From assembly GCF_052425735.1 (NCBI RefSeq), contig NC_135764.1:10354001-10418000 (forward strand): a stretch of 64,000 bases of DNA, in the 5' to 3' direction. A program made the position numbers and the translations under genes. Positions 2,121 to 19,153 of the stretch are shown one piece after another. The stretch's first letter is position 1. Each line of letters opens with the position of its first letter. Below the pieces are notes generated by a model, which worked only from the letters and a program-made list of their open reading frames with translations, searched no databases and had not been told where the DNA came from. Source of the stretch: Oculina patagonica. Taxonomy: Eukaryota.

Positions 2121-2233
2121 TTCAATTGAACTTAATAACAAAAGGCATGGCACGCGACAGTAGTAAAGGGCGCTTACGCACGGGCACAACCAATCACAGA
2201 GCAGCATTTCTGCGCATGCGTAGAAGAGAAAAT

Positions 2234-2525
2234 CACGTGACTAGGATGTGGATGACGTCATAAGAGTTGGTCCCAGGGTGTCCGAGTGTGGGTTCCAGGC
2301 CCCGGCGGCCAAAAGCGCTCGCCCCAGTCCTTGCGCGAAAAAAAAACGACAAGACAAGAAAATAGGCGTAAAAGGGAAAACCACGTGACTTAGGGGTGTG
2401 ATGACGTCATAGGAGTCGGCCCCAGGGTGTTTGGAGTGTCGGTCCCAGGCCCCGGACGGTTAGAATGAACTCGGTTCCAGTCCTCGCGCGGAAAAAAACG
2501 ACAAGACAAGAAAATAGGTGTAAAA
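2234..2525 (+). promoter_or_regulatory. Two ~148-bp direct repeats in the TIR, each with an E-box and an ATF/CRE palindrome
   Basis: CACGTG at 2234 and 2382; TGACGTCA at 2253 and 2402; shared CGACAAGACAAGAAAATAGG tail. CCAAT and NRF1-like TGCGCATGCG motifs lie nearby (2190-2220). Confidence 0.65.
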
Positions 2526-2597
2526 ACAGGTTTTTTAATAACAGGTTTTTTATGTTAAGGTACAAGACACTAAAAAACGGTAACAAGTGGTCCTAAA

Positions 2598-2669
2598 GCC
2601 CCGGTAGTGTAACGGGTATCACTCCTGCCGCTGAGGTAGGCAATCGAGGTTCGAGTCCTCGCTGGGGAT
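2598..2669 (+). tRNA. tRNA-like Pol III gene, anticodon CTG (Gln-like, atypical), left TIR copy
   Basis: Cloverleaf GCCCCGG-TA-GTGTAACGGGTATCAC-T-CCTGC-CG[CTG]AG-GTAGG-CAAT-CGAGG-TTCGAGT-CCTCG-CTGGGGA-T; A-box TAGTGTAACGG; B-box GGTTCGAGTCC; T9 terminator at 2671-2679. G33 and the G1:A72 mismatch are non-canonical. Confidence 0.8.
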
Positions 2670-3270
2670 ATTTTTTTTTCCTTGTGTCAATGTTCCCTAA
2701 GCCCTAGTGGCCGCGCACCCTGGGAATGAACGTGTACAAAGTTAGCAAGACCACCATCCTATAGATATGGTTCACAAAGTGCCATACTGTCCTTGTGGTA
2801 TCTGGAACTCAATACTTTGCACTAAACGCATGCGCAGATGAGTCTACGCGATACACTCACGATTGATAATTAGTTACCTCTCTTGTGAAGACCACAAAGG
2901 TTGTCTCAGAAAGCGCCATGCCTTCCTTATGGTATGGTTCTTCCTGGCACTAAACGCATGCGCAGATGAGTCTACATTGCTTCGGCGATTCTGAAAAAAC
3001 GCACGCTTGTGAAGTATTAAAAAAAACACGTCAGAGAGGGGGGATGAGGGGGTATCCCCCTTTCTCGGGTGTACTGGGAACGAGTACGAATCGAGCGGTG
3101 AGAGTGTTTATATCTCAAAAGATGTCGACAAGTAAGTTATTAAATATTCAGTTATGGAGAACGATCAACGTGGGTACGATTGAAACTATATCAACGTGTT
3201 GCGGTAGGTTTCCCATCTGGGGCATGCTGTTGGACACAACAGCATGCCCCATACGAGCTAGTGGGTAGAA

Positions 3271-6200
3271 CTAGGCGTTAAAGTAACCATAGGGGTATGA
3301 CATAAAGGTGTTGGCATCTACCACTCTCTTGTCGAAAACCACTTGATAGCGCTTGATCTCCGTCACAGTGTTCAGGGTTTTGGTCGTTTTGTCTCGGGTG
3401 ATCTTGTGAGGGTTGAACACGGCAATGCTCCTCGTTTCGGCCAAGGGTTCTTTCACTTCGGATTTGACGTTGTCTTTCAATGTCTCAAAGTTGAGATGGG
3501 CGGATCCTCTCACGTTCAAGGAAAAACCCCTTACTTTACAACAGGTTTTTCCCAGTTTCGTCTTGTAGGCATAGTTTTTAGGTCCGGCGGCGGCAAATTC
3601 CACAATGAAGTCATCATCGTCTAGTTCGTTGGTAAAGTCTCCCAGGTAATCACCCAGCGGTAAGGAGGGCTGACCTTCTCGATGTTTGTAGATGAGGGAA
3701 TCTGTGTCAAAATACAAGATCTGTTCGGGTTGCAGGATGGAAAGACCTTCTTGGTACAGCTTCAAACGGGCCCAGGTGGTCGTAAAGCAGGCCACAAAGA
3801 TGTTGATGTCTGGTTGAACGTTGGCGCAGTCCTCCTTGCACTTATGGACCACCTCCAACATCTCTGGATTGACGACCCGAATGTCGTGGATGTCTCGGGT
3901 CTCGTCTCTTAACAAGTCGTGAAACTCAGCTGCAGAGGTGAAGGCTTCGACTTGGGTCTTGTTGCCTCTCTGACCATACTTGCCCCAAAAACTATTGAGC
4001 ATGATCTTGGCCAGAGATCTGCGTCCGGGATTCTTTTCAATCTTGTCCGGATCCAACTGGAGGCCTTCTTTGAGAAAGAACTGTCTCAAGTATTCCTGGC
4101 GTTTGTCTGGATCGTCGCCCACCCACGAGGGCCAACCGCTCGCTTCCTGCTTCATCTTCAGGAAGGTGTTGACATACTCTTTAAACATGGTGTTGGATTT
4201 GCGGTCAAAGTGCCACACCTCGTGAATGTGTTCCACCACGTACCCTTGCTTGACGGCCTCTTCCAACTCGGGCGTGCACCACGTTCCGGTCAGTTGGCGT
4301 TCTTGAGGGCTGTGAGCGCATTTGGAGGATCGTTGGGTCAACGGCTTGGGCTGCTCCACTTCCACGCAGGTACGGCAGAGGGGGAATGTCAGTTTACCCC
4401 CTTGGCGATAGGGCAACACGGGGCTGTACAACCCGTAAGGTGGCGTCACCGTACACTTTGCCAGACCGAAGAATTGTGAAATGTTCGTGTGTCCCGGTTC
4501 TAGGATCACTTCCGGATGCCCTTGAGGGTAGTCACAGTTTTTGTTGACCCAGGGGTACAACGAGGTAAAGTCCACGTACCGGATCTCCTCTTCAGGTTCG
4601 GCAAGGTCATAGAGGCGGACGGCATTGGTTCTACCGCCAAAGAACGCGTCTCGGGGCTCCAAGCGGGAGTTGATCGACAACGAGTCCACGAACGATTTCA
4701 CCTCGGGATCACTGTCCTTGAGCGCTTTCCACTGGCATTCCCACATTTCTACCACGCGGTACCCCGCATCTCGGATCCGCTGCGTCTTTTGTTGCGTTTC
4801 CGCGTACACGTCCCTCAGACTTCTGTCGCCCATCTTCCGGTGCTTCTGATCGCGATTGGGAAAACAGTCAGGACAGCCGTGAAAGTAGCAGCCGTGGAAC
4901 TCGTAAACCGTGCGATCCTCGTACCCGTCGACGTTCATCAGACGGTGTCCAATCCACAAGGCTCGTTCTCCACCGTTCCTAGCGTGACGGATGGTGCCCT
5001 GCGTCTGGCTGTCTTGATAGAGCAACCATTCCAGCGACACCAGGGAGTGAGGTTTGCCCTTGCCTTCCCAGCCTCGTACCGGTTCAGAAGCCAAGGTCTC
5101 TTCTTGCATGCACTTGGTGCGGTAGAAGCGATTACAGGCGGAGGCAATGGTGAGGCATTGCTCCATGGGATCGAAGCCGGCAATGGCTTGAAACTCTGCC
5201 CGGAAGACCTTGCAACCTTCGTGCAACAGTTCCACGTCTGAGCGACAGTAGTCGACAAGTTCGTTCCGAAAGTGGAACTCGTAATTCTCCGCCACGCGTT
5301 CCTCGTACCACTTGTCGAATTCGGCTTTCCTGGCAGTGGACATTCCCTCTGGATCGTAATAGTCTCTGGCAGGCATGCTGCCCACATAGTTTTGGTGTTC
5401 CTTCGTGTTGAAAAAGTGGGGGAAAAACCCCTTCTTTTGTTCGGTGAGGCCAAAGGCTTTGGGAAAGGTAGCAAGGCTCATCTGTAGAAAACACATGGAG
5501 TCCTTAAAGGTGATGCGGGGGATGGTCATGCTGATTATTTTGGCACCATTGACGACTTGTTCAGGGCAGATGGCTTGGTCGTACAACTCGTTTAGTATGA
5601 AATACGAGTCGTAGCCTTGGAAGTTATGAGCGACAGCTATGACGCGGTGTTGTTCGGCGATCTCCCTCAGCCAAGCGAGAAAGTCTTTCACGCAAGTCTC
5701 TCCCTCAAAGGTTCTCCTCTCGTCGGTGTCTCCTCTCAGGGCGCAAATCAAGTTGGCCACGTGCTCGCCTTCTTCCTGCCTGGCTTCGGCGTCCCAACTG
5801 ACGAACACGGGTGGTTGGTCTTCTTTGCGTTGACCGGCGCTGGTTCTCTTGCGGTTCTGTTTTTGTTCCACCTTGAGAGGATTTTGTATGTAGCACTGGT
5901 GGTAACGAAGATCTTGGTATTCCTTGCAGGACGGACAGGAAGCATGGCCGCACTTGTGACTGTTTCTCAGTTCATAGTCACCGTAGGTCTTGAAACACCC
6001 CGTACACCGTTTGTGCTTGTCACACACACTGTTCTTCTTGTCTGGGGTCATGTCTTTACCGGTGTCGGTGCGACTCTTGTGCAATTGAAGACAGCGGGTT
6101 CCAAAAAAGTCCCGTTGACAGTCTGTACAGTTCACCCTGGGTACAGCGTGGGCTCTCTTCCATTCGTGGCAATCGGTCTGATGGCAGGCGGCGCACCTGG

Positions 6201-7137
6201 CACCCGGGCAGCGGTGTTGCCTCCGGTCATTGTGGCTGAAGCCCTTTTCGCATTGGGTACAATAGTAACTCTTTCCAAAAAATCCCCCTAGGGTGGTACA
6301 GCCGTGGTAATGGTCATGGTGTTTGATCAAGATCAAACGTTTGTCGTCGGGGCGTTGTGCTCCTTTGAAGATGATCTGGTAACCATGTTGGACAGACACC
6401 ACCACAATCTGGTAAGCGTTCAAGTGGGCTTGAAATTTGGCCAATTCGTCCAAGCCGCAAGGACCTTCTGGCACGTCTGACAAACGGTGTAGTTCCTTGG
6501 CTGCCCTTTCTTGCACCGTATCATGCCTCCTTAAGTTTCCATAGTACCAATGGTCGGTCCCGAAATCGGCCCGGGCCTTCATCATCACCAAGGCACGGGC
6601 ACAGCATAACTGGTCGGTGTTTTTGATCTTGAAGACACACCGTTTTTTCTGCAGGATGTCCTCGATGGGGTCCAAACCGGGTTTGTATTTCTGGTTGTCT
6701 CCCCCTCGGCCTGGATCTTGCACGTGAGACACGTTTAGGTTGAACGTGTCGTCCACTTGAAAAGTCTGATTACTGTTCAGCATGTCACTGATTTGTTTTA
6801 ACAGCTGTTGGGCAGCGACGGTGTTTTCTCGCCACTCTCCCACTCTCAGACGTCTGGAATGAAAGGCATTTTGAATTCTGTTACTGTTGATGTTGATCAA
6901 CAAGTGGTCGTCATCTCCAACCGCTCCATCATCCAAGATATGGCGCTGTACGGCTCTCTGCAAGGCTCGGGCAATCTGTTGTGGGAGTACGGGACGCGGT
7001 CCTAGGGGTGCGGATTCTACTGCGGCACCACCACCTGTCTGTATTAGGCGTCCGGTAAAGTTTCTGATATGGAGGCCAAATCTGCGCACTCTGCGGTCCA
7101 CGTGACCTCTCAGTTCAAATTCAAAAGGAGCTTCCAT
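3271..7137 (-). CDS. polB: Protein-primed family B DNA polymerase: N-terminal terminal-protein/OTU-like and Cys-rich regions, exonuclease, inserted Vsr-like nuclease, polymerase
   Basis: Exonuclease motifs WDAE, AHNFQGYD, YCRSDV; polymerase motifs YVDFTSLYP, KIMLNSFWGKYGQ, YFDTDS, GPKNY; insert YEFHGCYFHGCPDC...GYRVVEMWECQW; OTU-like DQLCCARAL...HDHY. The first ATG is at 7137 (the ORF track starts at a TTG at 7182). Confidence 0.97.
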   Translation of the reverse strand: MEAPFEFELRGHVDRRVRRFGLHIRNFTGRLIQTGGGAAVESAPLGPRPVLPQQIARALQRAVQRHILDDGAVGDDDHLLININSNRIQNAFHSRRLRVGEWRENTVAAQQLLKQISDMLNSNQTFQVDDTFNLNVSHVQDPGRGGDNQKYKPGLDPIEDILQKKRCVFKIKNTDQLCCARALVMMKARADFGTDHWYYGNLRRHDTVQERAAKELHRLSDVPEGPCGLDELAKFQAHLNAYQIVVVSVQHGYQIIFKGAQRPDDKRLILIKHHDHYHGCTTLGGFFGKSYYCTQCEKGFSHNDRRQHRCPGARCAACHQTDCHEWKRAHAVPRVNCTDCQRDFFGTRCLQLHKSRTDTGKDMTPDKKNSVCDKHKRCTGCFKTYGDYELRNSHKCGHASCPSCKEYQDLRYHQCYIQNPLKVEQKQNRKRTSAGQRKEDQPPVFVSWDAEARQEEGEHVANLICALRGDTDERRTFEGETCVKDFLAWLREIAEQHRVIAVAHNFQGYDSYFILNELYDQAICPEQVVNGAKIISMTIPRITFKDSMCFLQMSLATFPKAFGLTEQKKGFFPHFFNTKEHQNYVGSMPARDYYDPEGMSTARKAEFDKWYEERVAENYEFHFRNELVDYCRSDVELLHEGCKVFRAEFQAIAGFDPMEQCLTIASACNRFYRTKCMQEETLASEPVRGWEGKGKPHSLVSLEWLLYQDSQTQGTIRHARNGGERALWIGHRLMNVDGYEDRTVYEFHGCYFHGCPDCFPNRDQKHRKMGDRSLRDVYAETQQKTQRIRDAGYRVVEMWECQWKALKDSDPEVKSFVDSLSINSRLEPRDAFFGGRTNAVRLYDLAEPEEEIRYVDFTSLYPWVNKNCDYPQGHPEVILEPGHTNISQFFGLAKCTVTPPYGLYSPVLPYRQGGKLTFPLCRTCVEVEQPKPLTQRSSKCAHSPQERQLTGTWCTPELEEAVKQGYVVEHIHEVWHFDRKSNTMFKEYVNTFLKMKQEASGWPSWVGDDPDKRQEYLRQFFLKEGLQLDPDKIEKNPGRRSLAKIMLNSFWGKYGQRGNKTQVEAFTSAAEFHDLLRDETRDIHDIRVVNPEMLEVVHKCKEDCANVQPDINIFVACFTTTWARLKLYQEGLSILQPEQILYFDTDSLIYKHREGQPSLPLGDYLGDFTNELDDDDFIVEFAAAGPKNYAYKTKLGKTCCKVRGFSLNVRGSAHLNFETLKDNVKSEVKEPLAETRSIAVFNPHKITRDKTTKTLNTVTEIKRYQVVFDKRVVDANTFMSYPYGYFNA

Positions 7138-7522
7138 CTTGAAACAAAGGAAATAAGGCAATGAATGGATGGAAAAAAACAAATGTACGTTTTTTTTTAT
7201 CTATATGACTGCCATGTTCGGAGTCATCAGCACTCTTCCAAAGTACAGGGGTCTCGAACAAATCTGCGTACTCTCCGGTCAACGTGGCCTCTCAATTGAA
7301 AGTCAAAGGCAATAAGGCAATGAATGTACGTTTTTTTATCTATATGATGGCAATGATCGGAGTCATCAGTACTCGTGGAAAGTACAGTGGCCTTTAAAGT
7401 GACTACAAGAACATTTGTCCGTAATTTTCTGTTTTCCTGTACAGCTCATTAGAATATTACACAGCATAAAAGCACATGAAAAACGGGTTACACAAATTCA
7501 CTCTACTCTAATAACTAGTTAC

Positions 7523-7761
7523 CTCTTCATTGGACTCTCCTTCACTTGTGCTTGCACTCGGTTCGCCACCACCACTTGTACTTGCACTCTACGATGAAAA
7601 GAACATCGTATAAATAAAAAACATTGGCGAATCAAATATAACCCAACGCATCTCATCAACGTACCTCTTCCAATCTAGCTCTCTCCGGGCTCTCAGCCTC
7701 TATATCTTCTCCCAGTAGTAGTCTCATCTCCAACCATAGTAGTCTCATCTTCTTCTTCCAT
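7523..7761 (-). other. Two small upstream exons of the leftward (PolB-side) transcription unit
   Basis: Exon 7748/7761-7665 ends GAG|GTACGT; a 76-nt intron ends TTCTTTTCATCGTAG; exon 7588-7523 (SASTSGGGEPSASTSEGESNEE) ends GAG|GTAACT. TATAAAA on the minus strand at 7823-7817. Confidence 0.55.
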
Positions 7762-7934
7762 TGTAGCGCTCAGACCAAACAAAGTTTGCGAGTGAATAAA
7801 TGAGCAAAGTAGCTCCTTTTATACAACTTTTCCATCCCAGAAGAACTGGGCTCTAGTATTCCCATTGGTCAATCGAGGTGACCTGATACAGAATGAACCA
7901 ATGAGATCTCATGATCAATGTCACCCAAGGTGAC

Positions 7935-8075
7935 GGGATTTTCCCCACAAGGGTAAAATCCCAAGCTGACGGGATTTTCCCCACAAGGGTAAAATCCCGG
8001 GATTTCCCCCCAAGGGAAAAATCCCGACGCACGCGCGTGGAGAATCTTTCTCGGAATTCTCGGAATTCTAGGAAC
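7935..8075. promoter_or_regulatory. Cluster of NF-kB/Rel-like sites upstream of the PolB promoter
   Basis: GGGATTTTCC at 7935 and 7971 and GGGATTTCCC at 7999 fit GGGRNWYYCC. Opposite-strand near-matches GGGTAAAATCCC (7951, 7987) and GGGAAAAATCCC (8014); then GGAATTCT twice. Confidence 0.55.
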
Positions 8076-8614
8076 CCGCGTGTGTTCATTCTCGGAAAAG
8101 TACAGTAAAACGGACAAAGTTTTCTTGTCGGATTACAGCTCTTTTCAAGAAGGATATAAGCTTTAAGGTGAGCTAATGTCTCCATACTCTACTGTACAAG
8201 ACGAAGAGCGTTTGATAAATTGTATTTACTGCGAAAAATAAATTTGGTTACGTTGTAAATTTTGACGAGTGGTTTGTTTTTGTTCGTGCGGCCATCATGA
8301 ACCGTGCATAGTAAAGAAGAAGAAGGTTTTAGACCCGTTCATTTCGTTCAAGGTTTTTTGGTCTAGTTGTGTTTATGGTCAAAAAAAGAAGAAACCGAAC
8401 TTTACGAATAAACAAGTCGTTTTTGGTGGACTGAATTATTCTTTTAAGCGAAATTGCTCGCGCAGTTGTCGTTTTCTTTCGTAAACAACAACAACTTCAA
8501 ACGCCTTCATCTTTTTCTTTTCGCAGTCTTAAAAATATCGAGGGAACATCCCACTATGATTCAGAAAAAAAATAAAACCTAGCCACCTAGAAGTGAAGCT
8601 TAAACGTTGTAAAT

Positions 8615-9325
8615 CCTAAACAAGTGTGTCAACGACTTTGTTGTGATTTTTCACCGGTCGCGAAAAAATATAATTGTAGCGTGCAGTTCATTTGGCCGTT
8701 GTTCAAATGCATTTTTCTCGAAGAAAAATTTTTTTTGGCGGCCCTTATATCAAAGGGACGTCTAACCATGAATGATATTATTTCGATGAATGTAAGTGAG
8801 CAAAAAATTTCATATTTTTGGACTCTAAGCATAAGTGTCATCGACTTTGTTGTGATTTTCACCGTTCGCGAAAAAATATAATTTAGCGTACGGTATTTGT
8901 TGTTGTTTAAATGCGTTTGTTTGTTTGTTTTTGCGGCCCTGAAATGAAAGGGACGTCCAACCATGAATGATATTATTTTAGTAAATCTCAAAGCAAGTCA
9001 TTGAGCCGGATCTTCACATTTTTACACCCTAAACAAGTGTGTCAACGAGTTTGTTGTGATTTTTCACCGGCCGCTAAAAATATAATTGTTGTAGGTGGTT
9101 CATTCGGCCGTGTTCAAATGTTTTTTCTCGAAGAAAAATTATTTTTTTCGGCCCTTAAATCAAAAAGGACGTCCAACCATAAAAGATATTATTTCGATGA
9201 ATGTTATTGAGCCGAAAATTTCATATTTTTGGACTCTAAGCACAAGTGTCATCGACTTTGTTGTGATTTTCACCGTTCGCGAAAAAATATAATTTAGCGT
9301 GCGGTATTTGTTGTTGTTGTTGTTT
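8615..9325. repeat. AT-rich internal tandem array, ~205-210-bp monomers in a ~413-bp dimer
   Basis: CCTAAACAAGTGTGTCAACGA at 8615 and 9028; TTTGTTGTGATTTT(T)CACCG...AAAAATATAAT occurs four times. Confidence 0.85.
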
Positions 9326-9382
9326 AAGCGATTGAATCCCATACTCTCGTAATTCAGTTTCGGCATGGAGCAATTTGTAAAT

Positions 9383-9904
9383 TTATTTAACAACAAAAGT
9401 CTGGTACCATAACCAGAAAGCATGACATTCGGTCATTGGACAATGTCCTTCGTATAGATGAAAACCGCAACTAGGTAAAGGTTCTACAATTGTCTCTTTC
9501 AACACGTCGTATTTCGGACATCCGTACAGTTCTAAATTCACGCTAGGAATGTTCAGTTTGTTCAACAAGTCTCTTTCGACGTGTCCTCCCTTGTAAGCCA
9601 CCACGGTTCTCTCGGGGGTTTTGGTCTCCTCGTACAAATCCCACATCACCTCCTCCACCCTGTCATACTCGTAGGCCTTTTCTTCCTTTCTGGGTTGATA
9701 CGTCAGTCCGTGCACGTTGTATTTGACGTAAGACACGGTTTTTCTGTCTCTGGAAGATAAGTTGCACCACGACATTCTCATGTAGAAAGCATGGCGTCCG
9801 AACTTTTCTTGCCAAGTGTAATAACCCAACTCGCGTACTCGAAACGTCTTCTCCACAAAGTAACCTTCCAAGTCCAAGATCATGCACACGTTTTCCGGAG
9901 TCAT
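9383..9904 (-). CDS. DEDDh-fold 3'-5' exonuclease with ECHC-type Zn site (arenavirus NP exonuclease / Maelstrom-like)
   Basis: ILDLEG...VRELG, KYNVHGL, VAYKGGHVERDLL, SCGFH...GHCPMTEC; AATAAA overlaps the stop codon. Confidence 0.7.
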   Translation of the reverse strand: MTPENVCMILDLEGYFVEKTFRVRELGYYTWQEKFGRHAFYMRMSWCNLSSRDRKTVSYVKYNVHGLTYQPRKEEKAYEYDRVEEVMWDLYEETKTPERTVVAYKGGHVERDLLNKLNIPSVNLELYGCPKYDVLKETIVEPLPSCGFHLYEGHCPMTECHAFWLWYQTFVVK

Positions 9905-9969
9905 GCCAGAGCTAACTGCACTCTGATGCTTGACGTAGAAAATATATGAAAATGTTTAAACTGTAAATC

Positions 9970-10878
9970 TCAATGATCCAAATTAGGATATTGTTTCTGG
10001 GAAATGCATCTCAGATACAGTTGATTTCTCAGCATTTTCTCTTCATCCGAGTCGTACTTCACGCCAGCCAATTCCGGGGGAAGAATAATTTTCCCTTCTC
10101 CATCCACCCAAAACTTTTGCTCTTGACACTGTTTGACCAATGACTCGTCCAAGGGAAGATCACCAATCCAATCCTTGACCGGGGGTGGGTAGTGTTGTAC
10201 TTTGAAGGCGGGTCTCCCATCCAGAATTCGTTGCGGTCTATCCACCACGTCTTGTCCTCTTCTGGGGTATCCAAATTCGTCCCTAGAGTCCAGTCCAGAC
10301 CTTCTCGAGTAGAGGGGATCCTCGTTTCCCACATATTCCTTTCCTTCCAGCCAGGCTTTGATCTTGCCAAACGGAACACTGTCGGCCCATTGGAAGAACC
10401 GGCATTTCCCTTTTCTGCACTTCAAATAGATCCTGTTCGGGTTGCTCTCTGATTTCGACATGCTCAGAATGAGACTCTCGTTGCAGTAACATTTCATCTT
10501 ATCCATGTTCCAATAATAGTAAGCCGGTAATTGTTGATTGACCGCCACCACGTACTGGTCAATGTGGGCGCTACCGGTGCAAATGAAACAGATGGTGCCT
10601 TCGCTCGTGTGGGGGCAAAAGTAGAACTCCCATCCCCCGTCCGTCATTCTCTTGGTCAGCGGTTCTTTGTGGACGGGGCAAACCGGGTCGCGCTCCGTGT
10701 CGTCAAAGGTCTGTTGTAGGAACTGGTCGGGGTCGAAAATTTCACCCTCCTCCAACACTTCCTCTTTCAACTCCATCTTCTTCTTTGTAGGATGTCTCTT
10801 TTTACGGGGGACTTTGGGTTTCTTGGGGTTTCCAGTCCCTCTCCTCTGTCGCTTTTTTTGGGGTTCTGCTACGTCCAT
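9970..10878 (-). CDS. Nuclear zinc-finger protein: basic NLS, EEGEI motif, Cys/His finger and GRF-type zinc finger
   Basis: KKRQRR...PRKKRHPTKKK; LEEGEIFD; CPVH...FYFCP...CFIC; CYC-x13-NPNRIYLKC-x4-CRFFQWAD-type zf-GRF pattern. Confidence 0.75.
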   Translation of the reverse strand: MDVAEPQKKRQRRGTGNPKKPKVPRKKRHPTKKKMELKEEVLEEGEIFDPDQFLQQTFDDTERDPVCPVHKEPLTKRMTDGGWEFYFCPHTSEGTICFICTGSAHIDQYVVAVNQQLPAYYYWNMDKMKCYCNESLILSMSKSESNPNRIYLKCRKGKCRFFQWADSVPFGKIKAWLEGKEYVGNEDPLYSRRSGLDSRDEFGYPRRGQDVVDRPQRILDGRPAFKVQHYPPPVKDWIGDLPLDESLVKQCQEQKFWVDGEGKIILPPELAGVKYDSDEEKMLRNQLYLRCISQKQYPNLDH

Positions 10879-10926
10879 GGTGCTCTCGATGCTCCAACTG
10901 AGGACTAACAGGAGACAACACGGTGC

Positions 10927-11040
10927 TTTTATACTTTACTCTCGGATGACGTCAATACGCACGAACCAACCAGAGAGGTAACACGTGACCTCTTCCGACC
11001 AACCGGCAATGACCCAGGTGACGTCATCCAACGTATAAAA
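10927..11040. promoter_or_regulatory. Compact bidirectional promoter between the leftward and rightward gene blocks
   Basis: TATAAAA on - (10933-10927) and on + (11034-11040), enclosing TGACGTCA (10947, 11019) and CACGTG (10982). Divergent ATGs at 10878 and 11077. Confidence 0.7.
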
Positions 11041-11076
11041 AGAGCTGCGCGTCCATTTGTCGACTCAGTTGTAGCG

Positions 11077-11352
11077 ATGGAAAGCACAGACAGCGATTCC
11101 AGCCAAACTCAAACTCAAACCCCACAAGTCAACGGTGTCTTTGTACAAGGAGATCCCAAGGACTGGGAACCATTGCCTTACTATAGGGATCTAAAAAGGG
11201 GCGATTATCAATCGGACGAAGATTACCTATTGGAGCGCGCGAAACGTGGCATGGAAGCAGGCTACACGTTTATGCAGTGTCAAGAACATTGGATGTGCGA
11301 TCTGGAGAGTGCATTATACAAAGGTTCGGCCGAAGCAAGCCAAGAGCAGTGA
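11077..11352 (+). CDS. Hypothetical acidic protein (91 aa)
   Basis: First ATG after the TATA box, good initiation context (GCGATGG), tightly packed against the next ORF. Confidence 0.65.
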   Translation: MESTDSDSSQTQTQTPQVNGVFVQGDPKDWEPLPYYRDLKRGDYQSDEDYLLERAKRGMEAGYTFMQCQEHWMCDLESALYKGSAEASQEQ

Positions 11353-11353
11353 C

Positions 11354-12124
11354 ATGGGTACGAGAGAAAACTGGCTGGACCTGGAACAACGACTCTTCTA
11401 CACCAATTGTACAAAGCTAGAAAAAAAGATCCAGACCGACACGGGAATCACTGTGTTGTCGTTAGACTATCCCACCACCATACCCGAAAACATTCCAAGG
11501 AGAGTCTATGTCTTCGAGGACATGGTGAAAGAGCGCGGGTGTGCCAAGAACCGCGTCACCGAAAGTGAATGGCTCAAAGAGAACCCTCACTGGAAGGGAG
11601 CCGTGATGGCGACCATCAAAGACATTGGGCACGGTTATCTCTGGGATAGACATTGGAATGAATTTGTCTACGTGCCATTGCAGCGAGCCTTTTTCTTCGT
11701 GACGTCTCGCAAACCGCCGCCCATTGGCATCGGCGTCTCGTTCTGGTTGAACGCGAACGTCTGCGACTTTGACGACCGGAGTGGTTTAGAAGATCTCATC
11801 GCACCGTTGAGAGCGAGTGTAGCCCTAGGCCAGACATTGTCTGCCTACTTGAAACAACCTATCACGGTCGACGCAAACACGTACGAAGAACTGTGCAACC
11901 AACTGGCAACTCAAGTAAAATTGCAACGCCTAGAAAGCAATCGCTGGCAAGAAATAGCGGATAGATTGTTAGACAGAGATCTCTGCAACCGTTGCGCCAT
12001 GGATAAAGATGAAGCTTACCTGGGCGACGACTACCAAAAAGCCAAACTGTGGAGACCTAGAAGTTGCGAAACTTGTACAAAATCTTTTGATAACATATTT
12101 ATTGATGCAGGCTATTTAAATTGA
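11354..12124 (+). CDS. Hypothetical protein (~256 aa) with a C-terminal CxxC...CxxC motif
   Basis: ATG 1 nt after the upstream stop; CNRC...CETC; AATAAA at ~12134. Confidence 0.7.
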   Translation: MGTRENWLDLEQRLFYTNCTKLEKKIQTDTGITVLSLDYPTTIPENIPRRVYVFEDMVKERGCAKNRVTESEWLKENPHWKGAVMATIKDIGHGYLWDRHWNEFVYVPLQRAFFFVTSRKPPPIGIGVSFWLNANVCDFDDRSGLEDLIAPLRASVALGQTLSAYLKQPITVDANTYEELCNQLATQVKLQRLESNRWQEIADRLLDRDLCNRCAMDKDEAYLGDDYQKAKLWRPRSCETCTKSFDNIFIDAGYLN

Positions 12125-12151
12125 CGTTGTATAAATAAAAGTTCATTTGTC

Positions 12152-12463
12152 ATGGATCTGTATGGAAAGTGGGAGTGGTTGAAAAGATTGTGCGAGAAAG
12201 CGTATGCTGAATTTGGGAGGGGTATAGATATACCGGAAGATACGAGTGACTCCCCCTTGAGAGTGTTCGAAGCCACCCACATAGAACAAAACTATTTCAG
12301 ATTGATACCGTTTATATTATGGTTGAGACATTTCAAGGATCCAGCCGAGCTGTTTGCTTCTATTTACAAACTTCATCCGACCACGATCGAAGAGGCAGCT
12401 CATAAATTACACGTCACTTATATGAGGGTGGTCAGAGCGTCGTCGACATGCCAAAGAAGCTGA
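12152..12463 (+). CDS. Hypothetical protein (103 aa)
   Basis: ATG-initiated ORF filling the gap before the integrase and overlapping its start. Confidence 0.55.
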   Translation: MDLYGKWEWLKRLCEKAYAEFGRGIDIPEDTSDSPLRVFEATHIEQNYFRLIPFILWLRHFKDPAELFASIYKLHPTTIEEAAHKLHVTYMRVVRASSTCQRS

Positions 12464-13527
12464 AAAAGGATGAGAAGATACTTTTGGACTACCACGATCC
12501 CAGTCAACCGGGTAGCTTGGGCGGGATAACAAGATTCGCCAAAACGCACAAGATATCTGTCGACACAGCCAAAAAAGTATTGGAGCGCGATTTGGGTTAT
12601 ACCCTTCACAAACCGCGCAGACGTCGTTTCGCCACGTTACCGGTCCTGGTGTTTAATGTCGACCAACAGTGGGTAGCAGATTTAGTGGAAACGCAACCGT
12701 TGTCCAAATACAACAAGGGTCACAGATATCTACTCAACGTGATCGACGTCTTGTCTAAATATGCCTGGGTGGAACCCCTAAAAGACAAGACGGGAAAAAC
12801 GGTGTCGGACGCCTTTGCCAAGATTTTGAAACGAGCCGATGGACGCAAACCTCAGAACCTACAGACCGACGACGGGAAAGAATTTTACAACAAGACGTTT
12901 GCCGCGTTGATGAAACGGGAAGGCATCCACCACTTTTCCACGGCCGGAGATACCAAAGCCAGCATCGTGGAACGCTTCAACCGCACTCTCAAGGAACGCA
13001 TGTACCGATACTTTACCGCCAAGAACACGCTCAGTTACCTACCTGTACTCCAGGCCTTGGTGAGAGGGTACAACGGATCCCACCATCGTAGCATCGGCAC
13101 CAGCCCCGAGAAAGTGAATGCGAGCAACGAAGGAAAAGTGTGGGAACGTCTGTACGCGAAGAGGTTGTCGTCGCGTAAAAGAGAACGAAAAACCCCGCTA
13201 AAAGTAGGAGAACGCGTGAGATTGAACAAGAAATTTCGCACGTTCGAGAAAGGGTATTTACCCGGCTGGACCGAAGAAGTGTTTGTGATACGAGAGGTGC
13301 TTCGGGGACCACCCGTCACGACTTACAAGATCCAAGAGTTGGACGACACCCCCCTTCGCGGTACGTTTTACAAGGAAGATCTACAAAAAGTCGCAGTGTC
13401 CGACGACGATGTCTTCAGGGTGGACAAGATCGTCAAACGAAAAGGAAATAAAGTCTTGGTGCACTGGAAAGGCTGGCCAGACAAGTACGACAGCTGGATC
13501 GAGAAGACGGCTCTAAAAAAATCATGA
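12448..13527 (+). CDS. int: Retroviral-like (rve) integrase with a C-terminal chromodomain
   Basis: QWVADL, VIDVLSKYAW, LQTDDGKEF, VERFNRTLK (DDE); chromodomain FRVDKIV...VHWKGWPDKYDSWI. Confidence 0.96.
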   Translation: MPKKLKKDEKILLDYHDPSQPGSLGGITRFAKTHKISVDTAKKVLERDLGYTLHKPRRRRFATLPVLVFNVDQQWVADLVETQPLSKYNKGHRYLLNVIDVLSKYAWVEPLKDKTGKTVSDAFAKILKRADGRKPQNLQTDDGKEFYNKTFAALMKREGIHHFSTAGDTKASIVERFNRTLKERMYRYFTAKNTLSYLPVLQALVRGYNGSHHRSIGTSPEKVNASNEGKVWERLYAKRLSSRKRERKTPLKVGERVRLNKKFRTFEKGYLPGWTEEVFVIREVLRGPPVTTYKIQELDDTPLRGTFYKEDLQKVAVSDDDVFRVDKIVKRKGNKVLVHWKGWPDKYDSWIEKTALKKS

Positions 13528-14555
13528 GCCACGAGGAAGGATTTTACGTCACGTTACCCAGTCACAGCAGCGGAACCGAGTTTCCAGAGAATAGAGCAAA
13601 CTCTTTCAAGGTGCGATTACCTCACCCGCTACGATTGGAAGGAACCGGTTGGAAAGTGGGATTGAGTAGCATTTCCGTGCCAGATGCCAGCATCGACTTA
13701 ACTCGCTTTAAGTCGTTCAAGTTTCCTCTCTTGAGTGCTCAGTGGATGCTCAAGCGCAAAGACAACGAGGGTCGCGTGCAAAGCAAGTCGGTGACCACCG
13801 ATCTGACGTTCCAGGACATTCTATATGACGACAACATCGTGGATGGCCTCAGTTTCATGAAAGCCCTGGTCTTCAAGTTCGATCAAGTCAAAGAATACAA
13901 GCGTATCGTGGGAGACTTGACCAAGTCGCCCGATAATGGAAAGCAGTGGGAATATACGTTCAAGTGGGAAGGTGAAGAACTAGTCCTCGACAACTCGAAC
14001 TTGGACGTCTCGGAAGTGAAAACTGAAGGCGTCCCATATTACATGTCTTTCAACGAGGATTTGGCCTTTGACATGGGATGGGTAAAAAAGGACGAGAAAG
14101 AAAACGTGTTTCTCGGGCCGAACCTGAAGCCGGAATGCCACCACGCTACGATACCCGATCCCATAGACGTGGATGATTTTGGAGAGGGCAAGAAAAATTT
14201 CTGGGTTGTTGAGAATGGACAGCTTTTCTTGAGTTGCTATTGTAACTGGCGCTTTGTGAAACTCAACAGAGCCTTCCAAAAAGTGATTGGAGATGCATCG
14301 CGTACGCTTTTCGTTTACTCAGATGTGGGTGGTAGTTCCGTTGTGGGAAATCAAGTCACGGATCTGTTGCGGGAAATTCACTTTCAACGTGAAGGAAAAG
14401 GTATCAAGTACTTTGAACCTCTCCACATACAATATATTCCACTCCGCAACCAGATCGTGGACATTATTGAAACGCAAGTGAGCGAGACTACAGGTAAACT
14501 GGTGGATTTTGGCGAAGGCAACACGATCGTGACCTTACATATCAAGCGAACATGA
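13524..14555 (+). CDS. Minor capsid protein (penton; Polinton PX-like)
   Basis: N-terminus FYVTLPS...FPEN...FKVRLP...WKVGLSSI and C-terminus LFVYSD...VGNQVTDLLR...YIPL...VTLH, typical of Maverick pentons. Confidence 0.85.
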   Translation: MSHEEGFYVTLPSHSSGTEFPENRANSFKVRLPHPLRLEGTGWKVGLSSISVPDASIDLTRFKSFKFPLLSAQWMLKRKDNEGRVQSKSVTTDLTFQDILYDDNIVDGLSFMKALVFKFDQVKEYKRIVGDLTKSPDNGKQWEYTFKWEGEELVLDNSNLDVSEVKTEGVPYYMSFNEDLAFDMGWVKKDEKENVFLGPNLKPECHHATIPDPIDVDDFGEGKKNFWVVENGQLFLSCYCNWRFVKLNRAFQKVIGDASRTLFVYSDVGGSSVVGNQVTDLLREIHFQREGKGIKYFEPLHIQYIPLRNQIVDIIETQVSETTGKLVDFGEGNTIVTLHIKRT

Positions 14556-14809
14556 GAGGCGGTGCCCTGACGCGTTTCACACCGGATCCTCCACCTCAAG
14601 AGGGGAACGGATTTTTGGCCGACATCGTGAGAGAGTCTCTCGGTGGAGCCGTGAGAGGATTTAAGAGTGGGCGCGGCGTCGCGGACCGCATTCGTAAAGC
14701 GGGTCAAGGAGCCAAGAGTGGTCCTAAACGAGTCGTGAAACGCAAACTGAAAAACGTCATAGAACGAAACGTCAAGAGAAAACTGAACGACATCTTTGGC
14801 GAAAAATGA
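14552..14809 (+). CDS. Small basic virion-type protein with QEGNG motif and amphipathic helix
   Basis: QEGNG-FLADIVRESLGGAVRGFK; ATGA overlaps at both ends. Confidence 0.7.
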   Translation: MRGGALTRFTPDPPPQEGNGFLADIVRESLGGAVRGFKSGRGVADRIRKAGQGAKSGPKRVVKRKLKNVIERNVKRKLNDIFGEK

Positions 14810-15042
14810 ATCCCGTTTACTCGCGATCGTCCAGACTGGTCCGATCCAAACGCGCCCCCGTCAGACAGCGGGGAGAAGGATTCTCACTGGCACTTTTGAA
14901 CCAGGCCTTGTTGGGACAAAAGAGGCGACGACGAAAAGTACAAAAGGGCGGGTGGATAGGTCCCGAGGTCAGAAAGCCTCCTGGCTACGACTGGATACAG
15001 ACCTTACGGAAGCGCAGTGGAAGAAGGAAGAGAAGACGATGA
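14806..15042 (+). CDS. Small Arg-rich core-type protein with QRGEG and QKGG motifs
   Basis: RQRGEG-FSLALL and VQKGG-WIG; ATGA overlaps at both ends. Confidence 0.65.
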   Translation: MNPVYSRSSRLVRSKRAPVRQRGEGFSLALLNQALLGQKRRRRKVQKGGWIGPEVRKPPGYDWIQTLRKRSGRRKRRR

Positions 15043-16442
15043 CCGAAACCATCTCGAGCGCCTACCCGCAGTCGAGACGCGAGGCCAATCCTCGATTGGA
15101 TCTATTCGCCGTACCACCGACAGACGTCAGCGTCTCGTCGTATCGGATGGTCCCCGTTCAGACCTACACCACAGGCATCAATCCGGTGGAGTTTCAGATC
15201 GACCCCCAAGAAGATTACATCGATCTCAGCCGTAGCTTTTTCGAGGTAGAATTGCAACTGAAGAAAGACAACGATGAGAACGTGGCAGCTGCCGACAAGC
15301 TGTGGCCCGTCAACAATCTAGCCCATTCTCTGTTCAAGCAAATCAGCGTGCGTCTCAACGGTACTCTCATCAGTCCCCAGACGGACACGTACCATTACAG
15401 AGCCTTCTTGGAAACGTTGCTGAATTACGACAGGCGTGATGGAGAAACCATCTTGAAACCTCAAGGATGGTACAATCATATCGATTTCCCAGCCACGTGG
15501 ACGGACAATAACACGAACACTGCAGCCAACGCTGGAGCTGGACACGCAGACTATGTAGCCCTGACCACCAATCACAAGGAGGCTCTCAAGAACTCTAAAG
15601 CAGAACAAGCCAATTACACGGAAGGCAAGCGACACGTGTTGCGTTTCAAACCCCTCATCGAAGTGTTTCATCTGAGCAAGTTGTTGGTACCCAGAGTGCA
15701 GATAGGAATACAGATGTACTTCAATTCTCCCGACGTGTTCTTGAACGGAGTGGGTCTGGCAGGAAAGTTGACGGCCGAGGAAGTCAAAGTTCGAATGTAC
15801 CTGTGTCAAGTGCGTCTCAATCCCACGACGTACAGGAGACTGATGGATGAGATGACCACCAAGAGTCAAGTGGTGAGTTACCCGACCGTGAGAAGCGAGA
15901 TTCGGACCTTCAACATGCAGGGAGATCAACGACGGTACGAATGCACCAACTTGTTCCAAGGAAGAATTCCCAACCGCGTGATCGTGGGTATGGTACTGTC
16001 CACAGCCTTCACCGGGAACGTGGTCAACGATCCCTTCTGTTTTCAGAAGTTTGGAATGAGCAGCATAAAACAACTCGTGGGAGGAGAAGAGTATCCTTAC
16101 GAGACGCTAGAACTGGTTCACAACGATGCCACCAAAGATCTCAGAGGGTACCACCGTTTCTTGCAAGCCACCGGATGTCTGTGCAAGCAGCAAGGAAACA
16201 TGGTGAGAGGTGACGATTGGGGACAAGGAAAGAATTGCACGTTGTTCGTGTTCGACAACGTGGCCAATGGATGCGTGGACAGTTACAGGATGAACCCCAA
16301 GCAAGCCGGAAATCTACTAATAGAGCTGAACTTTGGAGCCAACCCAGCTGTGAACTTGACCATCATCGTGTACGGAGAGTTTGAGAATCTCTTGGAGATA
16401 GACAAGAACAAAGCCGTGTTGTACGACGTGTACCAGCGTTAG
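15039..16442 (+). CDS. Major capsid protein (double jelly-roll; Polinton PY-like), 467 aa
   Basis: LDLFAVPPT, YIDLSRS, NNLAHSLFKQISVRLNG, YRAFLETLL, IPNRVIVGMV...AFTG...DPFCF. The ATG at 15039 overlaps the upstream TGA. Confidence 0.92.
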   Translation: MTETISSAYPQSRREANPRLDLFAVPPTDVSVSSYRMVPVQTYTTGINPVEFQIDPQEDYIDLSRSFFEVELQLKKDNDENVAAADKLWPVNNLAHSLFKQISVRLNGTLISPQTDTYHYRAFLETLLNYDRRDGETILKPQGWYNHIDFPATWTDNNTNTAANAGAGHADYVALTTNHKEALKNSKAEQANYTEGKRHVLRFKPLIEVFHLSKLLVPRVQIGIQMYFNSPDVFLNGVGLAGKLTAEEVKVRMYLCQVRLNPTTYRRLMDEMTTKSQVVSYPTVRSEIRTFNMQGDQRRYECTNLFQGRIPNRVIVGMVLSTAFTGNVVNDPFCFQKFGMSSIKQLVGGEEYPYETLELVHNDATKDLRGYHRFLQATGCLCKQQGNMVRGDDWGQGKNCTLFVFDNVANGCVDSYRMNPKQAGNLLIELNFGANPAVNLTIIVYGEFENLLEIDKNKAVLYDVYQR

Positions 16443-16444
16443 TG

Positions 16445-17014
16445 ATGGAGAAAGTGACTTTGAATAACGTGCAATTGGATCAGTTGGCCAGACATCACCC
16501 GTCGTTGAAGCCTTACTTTTACGGGACGGTGGCCTGCGATCGATTACCTCGCAAACCACTCAAGACGGAAGCCCGCGGGTACATCGTCAACACCGATCCT
16601 CACTACATGCGCGGTCGGCATTGGATCGCGCTGTGGACGAATGGAAACGTGTGCGAAGTATTGGACAGTTACGCCTTACCCCTAGAAGTGTACCAGACGG
16701 CGCAACCGTTGCAAGATTGGTTGGACGATCATTGGAAGTACGTGGAGCGCAACGGACAGAGTCTACAATCGTTGTACAGTCAGAGCTGCGGCGATTACGC
16801 GTTGATGTATCTCATCGATAGGGCCGAAAGACGTAGCATGAGTCAATTCGAAGCGAGATTCAAGAAACACGATTACGTGTACAATGATCATAAAGTTGGG
16901 CAAATGTTGAAGCAATTGATCTCGAAGGAAAGGTCGTGGCACAAAATTTGTAAGATGGAATACCATCAGGATTGTGAACCGTCTCTCTGCGGTGTAAGAC
17001 ACTTGTTGTTGTGA
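16445..17014 (+). CDS. Adenain-like cysteine maturation protease
   Basis: YIVNTD...GRHWIAL (His), LDSY (Asp), LQSLYSQSCGDY (Gln/Cys); AATAAA signals at 17022-17045. Confidence 0.92.
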   Translation: MEKVTLNNVQLDQLARHHPSLKPYFYGTVACDRLPRKPLKTEARGYIVNTDPHYMRGRHWIALWTNGNVCEVLDSYALPLEVYQTAQPLQDWLDDHWKYVERNGQSLQSLYSQSCGDYALMYLIDRAERRSMSQFEARFKKHDYVYNDHKVGQMLKQLISKERSWHKICKMEYHQDCEPSLCGVRHLLL

Positions 17015-17146
17015 GATGACAAATAAAAACGTTGAAATAAATAAGGTGTGTGTCGTCTGTCGCTCGGGAGATCGGGATTCGTTGCAGACTTTTTTTCTGC
17101 AACATGCTTATATCATTGCTCGTTTTTTGACGAATGTCATTTCGCC

Positions 17147-17812
17147 ATGGAGCGCGGTGAAGCCTTTAGCTTTCGGATGCCCTCTAGCATTTTGATCGTG
17201 GGCCCCTCTAGCTGCGGAAAGACTTGTTTTACCGAGTCGGTACTTTTGAATCACTCAAAAGAGTTGTTTAGTACACCCCCTGAGACCATTCATTACTGTT
17301 TTGGGGCTTGGCAAGACGGTTTCGCGAACATGAAAAAGCGAGGCGTGAAATTTCACGAAGGGATTCCCGAAGAAGTAGATTTGACCAAATGGTTTCCCCG
17401 TGGAGGGGTGATGGTATTGGACGATCTGATGGAAGAAGGAGGAAACGACAAGAGAGTATTGGATCTGTTCACCAAACTTTCCCACCACAGGAACATCACC
17501 GTCCTGTACTTGTGTCAAGACATGTTTCCGCCGGGAAAATACGCCAAGAGCATTTCTCGAAATGCGCATTACATCGTGGCTTTCAAGAACCCTCGCGATC
17601 AATTGGGCATGAGGAATTTACTGTTACAAGCGTTTCCCTCCCGATGGCAAGATGTGATGGACGTCTACACCAAGACGACGGAAAGACCCTTTGGTTACAT
17701 GGTATTGGATCTACACCCTGCCAGTGGCGACGACAGACGGATTTTTAGCCACCTCTTAAAAGGCGAGGGATGCATGAGATGTTACAGATTCGTTCGAGAT
17801 GTTCGTACGTAA
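17147..17812 (+). CDS. FtsK/A32-like genome packaging ATPase
   Basis: Walker A GPSSCGKT, Walker B MVLDD, SHHRNITVLYLCQ, SRNAHYIVAFKNPRD. Confidence 0.93.
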   Translation: MERGEAFSFRMPSSILIVGPSSCGKTCFTESVLLNHSKELFSTPPETIHYCFGAWQDGFANMKKRGVKFHEGIPEEVDLTKWFPRGGVMVLDDLMEEGGNDKRVLDLFTKLSHHRNITVLYLCQDMFPPGKYAKSISRNAHYIVAFKNPRDQLGMRNLLLQAFPSRWQDVMDVYTKTTERPFGYMVLDLHPASGDDRRIFSHLLKGEGCMRCYRFVRDVRT

Positions 17813-18038
17813 CGATCACGTGTGGCTCGTGTTCTTGGACTTGTGCAGTCGTCATTTCGAGCGTATGAGAGAAGAGGACATGGACTACGACGCCATGCAA
17901 ACCGTGCTACATTTGGCCGAAAAGCGACAGATGTGGAAATTCGTGAGAGAATATAACGAGACTTACTTCAGCGAATTGATCCAGACATTAGAAGAGAGAG
18001 CTAGAAAGACATGTCAAGACATTCGCCAGCAGGAGTAG
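17799..18038 (+). CDS. Hypothetical protein (79 aa)
   Basis: ATG ORF overlapping both neighbours in the packed rightward block. Confidence 0.55.
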   Translation: MFVRNDHVWLVFLDLCSRHFERMREEDMDYDAMQTVLHLAEKRQMWKFVREYNETYFSELIQTLEERARKTCQDIRQQE

Positions 18039-18412
18039 GAACCAGTCCTAGTGCCATTCCGATCGTCAACGTCAACCGAGGGGGATTGAAACAGACATTG
18101 GATCGAATCGACCCCATAGTCCTAAGACGGTACTTGGATCAATTACCGTCTCCTGCAGTGGGTACGGGGACTTTGAGACCTTCTTCCTCGAGGTCCAACG
18201 TACCTGCAGGTCAAGGAACGCTAACGGGTGGTCCACACCAATTGAATCAAGACGACATGCAACGTCAATTGCAAATGCTGTTCAACGATCAACGTCAAGT
18301 GGCGGCTGGACGTCGCATCGCAGGCATCACCACGACAAACACCATCACTACGACCTATAAAGACGGGGGACGACCGACCGTTCGTCGTACCTCGACGAGA
18401 GTGAGCCATTAA
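18011..18412 (+). CDS. Hypothetical protein (133 aa), Thr/Arg-rich C-terminus
   Basis: ATG ORF in the packed block; ATTAAA at the stop. Confidence 0.6.
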   Translation: MSRHSPAGVGTSPSAIPIVNVNRGGLKQTLDRIDPIVLRRYLDQLPSPAVGTGTLRPSSSRSNVPAGQGTLTGGPHQLNQDDMQRQLQMLFNDQRQVAAGRRIAGITTTNTITTTYKDGGRPTVRRTSTRVSH

Positions 18413-18414
18413 AG

Positions 18415-18909: not shown

Positions 18910-18927
18910 AGTGACAGTTATGGTAGG

Positions 18928-19149
18928 ATGGGAAGAACGAAACGTAAGGCCAGAAGAAAGAGGCAGCGAGGTGGGGCTCTCGCGAGACGTAAACATCGTT
19001 TGGTGGACAAGATAGCCGAGGGGGCCAGCATGTTTCTCTCGGGTCCTTCACCCACATTCTTCACGTTGGGTGGTAAATTGGCCAGTCAAGGATTTAAAGG
19101 GATAATGGATAATGTAAATCATTATAGACGTAGACCGCGACGACGATAG
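18928..19149 (+). CDS. Small Arg-rich protein with QRGG motif
   Basis: MGRTKRKARRKRQRGG-ALARR...GGKLASQGFKGIM...RRRPRRR. Confidence 0.7.
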   Translation: MGRTKRKARRKRQRGGALARRKHRLVDKIAEGASMFLSGPSPTFFTLGGKLASQGFKGIMDNVNHYRRRPRRR

Positions 19150-19153
19150 GACC

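Follow-up and report, generated by a model that had tools for sequence, protein, structure and literature searches.

Do two adjacent, co-oriented genes of an animal transposon form one RNA-surveillance countermeasure, or are they separate genes that often travel together? The question arises in a 64,000-nt stretch of Oculina patagonica DNA (contig NC_135764.1, positions 10,354,001 to 10,418,000; the window, meaning this whole stretch), where an intact Maverick/Polinton element carries on its minus strand a gene for a GRF zinc-finger protein followed by a gene for a small nuclease. A first-pass annotation had proposed that alternative splicing from one TATA box co-expresses the two, possibly as a fusion like ERI2, which combines a DEDDh nuclease and a zf-GRF in one protein, and that they act with a tRNA-like RNA of the terminal repeats against host silencing. 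We favor a different reading, with a probability of roughly 55%: the nuclease is a stand-alone protein of the Maelstrom/arenavirus nucleoprotein (NP) type, made from its own promoter, that would act as a 3′-5′ exoribonuclease against RNAs that trigger silencing or sensing, and the GRF gene is separable from it. The genes concerned are as follows.

9383 to 9904, minus strand: predicted Maelstrom/arenavirus NP-type DEDDh nuclease, 173 amino acids (aa)
Predicted residues of this nuclease: catalytic D11, E13, E110, H154 and E159; zinc ligands E25, C146, H149 and C155
9905 to 9969, minus strand: spacer between the GRF and nuclease genes, 65 nt, out of frame
9970 to 10878, minus strand: GRF zinc-finger protein gene, 302 aa, with Pfam zf-GRF (PF06839) at residues 130-167

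The 173-aa open reading frame (ORF) returned no match in a Pfam search. Its AlphaFold model (predicted local distance difference test, pLDDT, 95.2) adopts an RNase H-like DEDD fold. A Foldseek search of the PDB ranks the C-terminal domain of the lymphocytic choriomeningitis virus (LCMV) NP first (E = 7.5e-4), the sole one of 424 matches at E ≤ 0.001. With VIA-align, the model aligns to Lassa NP with Z = 11.5 (root mean square deviation, rmsd, 3.5; 144 residues aligned), to Maelstrom with Z = 9.3-10.8, the upper value being Maelstrom in a Piwi complex, and to many DEDD nucleases with Z = 10-11.9 (139-158 residues aligned). The highest identities in two VIA lists are those of arenavirus chains (15-18%, versus 5-14%).

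Counted as offsets from the ends of the structural alignments, D11/E13/G14/H154/E159 align to Lassa D389/E391/G392/H528/D533 (numbering of PMC3429428) and D11/C155/E159 to Bombyx Maelstrom D122/C302/R306 (numbering of PMC4408791), equivalences that assume a gap-free stretch from the alignment ends to the residues. E25, C146, H149 and C155 are spaced like Bombyx E137, C290, H293 and C302, with C155 in register with C302. In the portions of the sources available to us, the Bombyx residues are described as ECHC zinc ligands (PMC4408791), the ECHC motif is reported for both Maelstrom and arenavirus NP (PMC7968707), and the Lassa catalytic residues are numbered, with a glycine needed for RNA digestion (PMC3429428). 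The window protein combines a DEDD fold, four acidic residues and a His at the Exo I-III positions (two of the four with Asp replaced by Glu), and the Glu, Cys-x2-His and Cys of the ECHC zinc subgroup at equivalent places; it lacks the PF13017 match of Maelstrom proper and retains the catalytic residues. We place it in the ECHC subfamily because residue pattern, not fold score, separates the subfamilies. The protein is very probably an ECHC-type DEDDh nuclease, and by analogy with its characterized relatives it is probably an active RNase. The first-pass annotation had also called the small gene a DEDDh-type nuclease, which the predicted fold and residues support.

The family is large, with 108 close homologues and 1,611 clusters at 50% identity, and its members are short (median 177 aa among 247 retrieved proteins, two long ones excluded). 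Among 106 diverse homologues, the zinc-ligand positions are kept in 102 (E25), 105 (C146), 105 (H149) and 106 (C155), and the catalytic positions in 96 (D11), 98 (E/D13), 103 (E110), 96 (H154) and 95 (E159). D112 was considered as the third catalytic acid and dropped, as it is kept in 55 of the 106 compared with 103 for E110. Values of dN/dS were 0.16-0.21 in six of seven pairs, the other pair being saturated, a clear sequence signature of purifying selection on the gene. Among named database proteins, the closest are gene models labeled with the stony coral Oculina patagonica. In genome G000 the gene is present in 25 copies at 95-100% identity (44 matches, 50 scored candidates), and the frame is open in all 25, which argues for a young element family. 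Neighbors in the Atlas are mostly unnamed eukaryotic clusters, with arthropods commonest. No relatives were found in viral_contigs, phage records or PDB sequences by sequence and profile searches. Of the named matches to predicted viral structures, the best are an uncharacterized protein of Drosophila-associated adintovirus 2 (E = 1.1e-7, TM 0.73) and four parasitoid-wasp ichnovirus ORFs (BFVD A2PZZ9, A2PZT5, S5DRE3 and S5DMS0; E = 5e-8 to 5e-5); the modeled structures suggest that polydnaviruses carry the same nuclease family.

Some homologues depart from the simple layout. P0089, P0094 and L091 are extended at the N-terminus by a stretch that includes an F-box-like motif and a Cys-rich segment; the F-box-like Pfam match is weak (E = 0.083, one of 50 members), and at most it hints, from sequence, at a ubiquitin-ligase link. 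P0109 (340 aa) contains the nuclease domain twice in tandem, the second copy apparently degenerate. The public gene model P0248 joins the start of the nuclease to PolB without a GRF, which we read as a join made by automatic annotation.

The conserved residues bear on whether the protein could instead work by binding, as a Maelstrom mimic that rivals its host counterpart in Piwi complexes or ties up transcripts of the element. Such a role would be in keeping with the alignment to Piwi-bound Maelstrom (Z = 10.8), with Glu for Asp at two catalytic positions and with Maelstrom-like exons in the host. However, the five catalytic positions are kept in 90-97% of the 106 homologues, unlike in animal Maelstrom, where the catalytic residues are lost, whereas an amoeba protein retaining them has exoribonuclease activity (PMC4408791, available portion); the window protein also has 173 aa compared with ~240-250 residues in solved MAEL chains, and no HMG box. 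We consider mimicry quite improbable. As for host genes, a PF13017 search of G000 (three candidates scored) gave two matches, neither at a nuclease copy; both are to the start of the Maelstrom profile (G000:C8:30176071-30176196 and C8:16576358-16576465) and possibly mark two host Maelstrom-like genes.

We compared the position of the GRF gene in 79 metagenome nuclease loci: it lies upstream in 26, is absent within at least 1.2 kb in 22, lies elsewhere in one, and 30 loci are too short to call. The 26 GRF-upstream loci fall in six of 19 sequence clusters, with GRF proteins ~25-50% identical, and both GRF states occur inside two clusters. A tree of 37 rows, which leaves out every locus too short for a label and, because they are identical or have a single hit of <100 aa, 17 of the 54 labeled loci, has six changes of the GRF-upstream label, five of them forced by starred branches. 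All five fetched GRF-bearing elements of G000 lack the nuclease in 30 kb, two of them with capsid and integrase genes 91-100% identical to those of the window element, and two of two fetched G000 elements of a third family carry the nuclease without a GRF; these elements were picked from hit lists to test uncoupling and show occurrence, not frequency. In L034, L035 and L038 the two genes are tail to tail. GRF-like hits at L125-L128 and L131, which have no Maverick gene within 10 kb, were left aside.

Nor do the two genes form a single frame in any of the 25 genome copies, where the spacer is 56-88 nt long and never a multiple of 3, or in 25 metagenome loci. The GRF motif is absent from all 249 nuclease homologues, and a search of 521-2,000-aa proteins found two with the nuclease, neither with a GRF; proteins of 304-520 aa were covered only by the 50%-identity cluster search. 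The ERI2 analogy is not supported by these genomic frames and proteins, nor by family membership: there is no ERI-family match (no Pfam match, 5% identity), and the ECHC residues are those of another subfamily. Judged by these comparisons, the GRF gene is a frequent, dispensable and separable neighbor of the nuclease, not its fusion partner, and with good confidence the nuclease is independent of it. An obligate module does not accommodate the GRF elements without nuclease, the nuclease elements without GRF or the tail-to-tail family. The first-pass annotation had allowed that a patchy, unlinked distribution across elements, and independent promoters, would speak against it; the sequences show a patchy, unlinked distribution and, ahead of the nuclease, promoter-like motifs separate from those of the GRF gene.

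A looser partnership between separate proteins is easier to imagine: the GRF protein would bind single-stranded nucleic acid and aid the nuclease, keeping the genes together in one large lineage. Adjacency persists at 33-40% GRF identity and in 22 of 30 tree rows of the clade containing the window's nuclease; a distantly related nuclease adjoins a GRF, in the opposite orientation, in another family; and NEIL3 is the closest solved relative of the GRF domain. Yet the GRF remains beside the integrase/capsid block when the nuclease is absent (five of five), a nearly identical nuclease in L049 sits in a different element type without a GRF, and the slot beside the GRF looks like a general cargo site, so that we find a partnership unlikely.

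The GRF assignment itself is sound at 30.5 bits (cut-off 25.9) with four conserved Cys. The protein has a basic, disordered N-terminus and a conserved Cys/His cluster (C67, H70, C88 and C97) ahead of the zf-GRF, and its structure model has a pLDDT of 72.2.

Transcription of the pair depends on four further motifs.

9382 to 9387, minus strand: AATAAA overlapping the nuclease stop codon
9915 to 9919, minus strand: candidate initiator-like GCAGT, its A (9917) 13 nt before the nuclease ATG
9943 to 9948, minus strand: TATA-like CATATA, candidate promoter of the nuclease itself by motif position, 44 nt before its ATG
10927 to 10933, minus strand: TATAAAA of the GRF gene, putative in function, with an initiator-like TCAGT 34 nt downstream

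The sequence confirms the TATAAAA at 10933-10927, both ORFs, and a 65-nt spacer that contains the string quoted by the first-pass annotation and no AATAAA. Both genes do lie downstream of that TATA, but the second, TATA-like CATATA (9948-9943) and its initiator had been overlooked. CATATA lies 31 nt before GCAGT, a pairing found in 0.4% of 20,000 shuffled spacers, and the pair stands at -44/-13, compared with -43/-10 in relatives and in ORF 11077. The promoter count drew on the 45 of 79 loci that offered both a usable ATG and 130 nt of sequence before it; removing redundancy left 17 regions, with TATA-like words in six, initiator-like words in eight, CCAAT in seven and a TATA-initiator pair in four, against shuffle means of 0.7, 1.3, 1.7 and 0.09. 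CCAAT, TATA and initiator words at fixed distances also occur in some relatives with the GRF directly upstream and no acceptor AG. These motifs make it likely that the nuclease has its own promoter. At the GRF gene's other end, positions 10927-11040 look like a compact divergent promoter for GRF and ORF 11077, with two TGACGTCA words and a TATA box on each side.

The same spacer is where splicing would have to act if one TATA served both genes and yielded either the nuclease or an ERI2-like GRF fusion, the tRNA-like RNA being an invariable third component. The two genes are adjacent on one strand in 26 of the 79 loci, no poly(A) signal separates them, the spacer has AGs at 9930, 9924, 9922, 9917 and 9913, the nuclease frame is open for 17 codons before its ATG, and TTTTCAG occurs shortly before the ATG in relatives L045, L046 and L051. 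The pyrimidine tract and AGs that the first-pass annotation saw are real, but as an acceptor their YAG context is equaled or bettered in 49% of 5,000 shuffled spacers; the best of 47 upstream GT donors matches just 6 of 9 consensus letters; and L043, L053 and L061 have the GRF upstream yet no YAG in the last 40 nt. The missing AATAAA, taken as a sign of co-expression, is the norm in this Maverick, where 11 of 14 rightward gene pairs have no poly(A) signal between them. Together with the lack of a fused frame or protein, the convergent or unlinked arrangement in other families and the 5% identity to ERI2, these data leave splicing or fusion very improbable. Contigs from eight public runs, possibly of DNA, are unspliced across the spacer, divergent promoter and intergenic repeats, with no joint into 9905-9969 among those listed, and are uninformative on splicing and expression. 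The AATAAA reported after the exonuclease stop exists but overlaps the stop codon (9387-9382) rather than following it; it is the only one on the minus strand from 12098 to the left end of the element and is likely, by position, common to the GRF and nuclease messages.

The tRNA-like genes lie in the terminal repeats of the element.

2159 to 22105, no strand: intact Maverick/Polinton with ~690-nt terminal inverted repeats (AGTAGT...ACTACT) and a 6-bp target duplication, CGCGAC
2597 to 2670, plus strand: tRNA-like gene in the left terminal repeat; ARAGORN Gln-CTG, Rfam tRNA 36 bits, T run after it
21593 to 21666, minus strand: tRNA-like gene of the right terminal repeat, the second copy

The first-pass call of a tRNA-like gene in these repeats proved correct for both ends. 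The match is weak (36 bits in a local Rfam scan, with 33 matches in G000), and a gathering-level Rfam scan of the whole element listed no match. In the metagenome loci, 13 of 15 ARAGORN calls sit 90-827 nt 3′ of a nuclease gene, within the 19% of bases that make up the 1 kb downstream. They comprise three unrelated backbones on either strand with T-run ends, among them an Arg-like backbone with anticodons ACG, ACA and ATG; of ten loci scanned, seven yielded nine matches that pass the Rfam tRNA score, and the folding z-scores of seven sequences are unremarkable (-0.03 to -1.4). Positions include L045:2968-3040, L061:1235-1309, L054:5623-5695, L088:1272-1345 and L108:2452-2526, among others, and L108 has an additional inverted match at 2548-2620. 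Thus the proposed tie between tRNA-like RNA and nuclease holds in some elements only: among 63 loci whose flanks are long enough, 14, many of them near-copies, have the gene just downstream, and it is absent from both nuclease-only elements of G000. From this distribution it is recurring cargo rather than a fixed part of nuclease loci, and some of these genes could be insertions derived from host tRNAs.

The clustering of tRNA calls downstream of the nuclease, and a fold tied with DNA exonucleases, RNase T and ISG20, would also be expected if the nuclease served element housekeeping or host shut-off unrelated to silencing, for example 3′ trimming of the tRNA-like RNA, decay of host messages or processing of single-stranded DNA ends. 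Complete elements without the nuclease imply that replication does not need it, the characterized nucleases with both motifs are ribonucleases (PMC4408791 and PMC3429428, in their available portions), and G14 matches the glycine that Lassa NP requires for RNA digestion; we therefore regard such roles as doubtful.

Several observations weigh against the reading of a stand-alone nuclease with its own promoter and an RNA-defense role. VIA Z-scores lie within about 1 of each other for many DEDD nucleases, ERI1 and DnaQ-type proteins included; the DNA-cutting nucleases DinG (11.9), a TREX1 homologue (11.4) and DNA polymerase III epsilon (10.9) are among them, as is ERI2 (7n8v; Z = 10.0, rmsd 3.9, 156 aligned, 5% identity). 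Because these scores are tied, fold alone fixes neither subfamily nor substrate. The Atlas points to a cluster that is 90% PF13017 Maelstrom at a score of 0.88, which, being under 0.9, is a lead only; the PF13017 profile is matched by none of 50 and none of 106 nuclease alignment members, and nuclease profiles pick up no PDB sequence. The equivalence of E110 to Lassa D466 comes from motif position only, and Glu replaces Asp at the third and fourth acidic positions. Because the promoter motifs were chosen with the relatives already in view, their enrichment is optimistic; as a TATA box CATATA is weak, and a CCAAT box is missing from the window; promoter motifs are absent from L043 (31-nt spacer) and L108, two of the six non-redundant relatives with the GRF upstream; and in L025 a spacer 12 nt shorter breaks the TATA-initiator distance. 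For these reasons we call the nuclease's own promoter likely and no more. Finally, the GRF-upstream majority in the window's clade indicates a linkage that is old, not accidental.

With these points counted, the stand-alone nuclease remains our preferred account, and its most likely role, by analogy to arenavirus NP and amoeba MAEL, is an RNA-defense countermeasure. The nuclease would be made from its own promoter inside the spacer, and the GRF transcript would run through to the shared AATAAA, the simplest layout being two nested, 3′-coterminal messages. As a putative 3′-5′ exoribonuclease acting on RNA, the protein may then remove double-stranded or precursor RNA of the element, supplied by its inverted repeats and convergent genes, before host Piwi-interacting RNA (piRNA), RNA interference or double-stranded RNA (dsRNA) sensors act; the anti-defense step follows arenavirus NP (PMC13483370, available portion). 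Little is understood of how piRNA and dsRNA defense in animals is evaded by large, active DNA transposons and by integrated viruses, and we found no described RNA-defense suppressor in Mavericks in the literature searched. The nuclease is a small, well-folding candidate, predicted to be a metal-dependent 3′-5′ ribonuclease. More speculatively, and only tentatively, animal Mavericks may harbor Maelstrom/arenavirus-type exoribonucleases, a large and mobile family with catalysis intact, that suppress piRNA, small interfering RNA or dsRNA defense, in some lineages with a tRNA-derived decoy RNA, the family being the missing link between host Maelstrom, the arenavirus NP nuclease and related ichnovirus genes. 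If true, this would bear on the origin of the arenavirus immune-evasion nuclease and on what Maelstrom did before its catalytic residues were lost. Greater novelty would have lain in a GRF-fusion system, which the comparative data count against.

The host element is a Maverick of 19.9 kb with near-perfect, AGT-ended terminal inverted repeats, the 6-bp duplication, and Pfam matches to protein-primed PolB (PF03175), a retroviral-type integrase (PF00665) and a PLA2-like domain (PF08398). The protease (PF00770) and ATPase (PF04665) score below the Pfam cut-off, and the capsid ORFs have no Pfam match and are named from size and position only. Between nuclease and PolB, positions 8607-9318 hold ~4 copies of a ~205-nt repeat of two alternating types, whose number seems variable among public contigs. 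A SLATT-like ORF at 18415-18909 (PF18181, below cut-off) has two membrane segments, and the SLATT label also appears on published adintovirus maps of coral and Hydra. A 16.3-kb element at G000:C5:16197023-16213349 has tRNA-bearing terminal repeats and no nuclease or GRF match, possibly through internal deletion. Mosaic elements (G000:C10:14103500-14133499, G000:C8:8175000-8204999, G000:C1176:14000-33999 and L138) match the window's capsid and integrase genes at 91-100% identity, while their GRF, ORF 11354 and PolB are just 43-72% identical and the nuclease is absent, inverted or swapped; by sequence, the mosaics point to frequent module exchange between Maverick families.

Genes of this kind are already annotated in adintoviruses: four "MAEL" labels stand near insect virus names on the maps of Starrett et al. 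2021 (PMC8502044, Supplementary Fig. S2), and a 2026 leafhopper preprint (bioRxiv 10.64898/2026.07.28.741253) lists a MAEL gene only. MAEL does not occur in the main text of PMC8502044 as available, and in the accessible parts of these sources we found no statement on catalytic residues, NP likeness or function. A Maverick nuclease of this type goes unmentioned in the available portions of PMC11161782, 10.1101/697771, 10.1101/2023.08.22.554363, PMC8363768, PMC11296320 and PMC2628886. In the open literature, which leaves subscription journals mostly uncovered, we found no discussion of a Maverick Maelstrom-like nuclease, its residues or its GRF link, nor any printed account of the kept catalytic set, the arenavirus NP likeness, the family size or the nearby tRNA-like genes. 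Within the accessible literature consulted, both motifs are so far reported for amoeba MAEL and arenavirus NP only.

Among known systems, adintovirus MAEL is a Maelstrom-like accessory gene in the same element class, and its labeled genes likely belong to the window's nuclease family. The arenavirus NP exonuclease (Lassa 4g9z/3q7c, LCMV 4o6h) shares the DEDDh fold, the ECHC residues, the kept catalytic set and the His-Cys-x3-acid in register, but it is a domain of a nucleocapsid protein, whereas the window nuclease is a stand-alone 173-aa protein of a DNA element with Glu at two Asp positions, to which dsRNA specificity and immune suppression extend by analogy only. Maelstrom (MAEL, PF13017; Drosophila 4ybg, Bombyx 5af0) shares the fold and the E / C-x2-H / C spacing, and the Entamoeba MAEL nuclease keeps both motifs, as does the window nuclease; the latter is smaller than Maelstrom, has no PF13017 match or HMG box, keeps the residues for catalysis and is borne by a parasite rather than the host. 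ERI2 resembles the locus in its DEDD fold and in the two domain types, here encoded side by side, but the window has two separable genes and a nuclease with no RNase_T Pfam match and with ECHC residues of another subfamily. Adenovirus virus-associated (VA) RNAs and other viral tRNA-like RNA polymerase III transcripts come from short genes with tRNA-type promoters and T-run ends in a related class of DNA viruses; the Maverick genes, known here from sequence alone, differ in being tRNA-derived, with several unrelated backbones and drifting anticodons.

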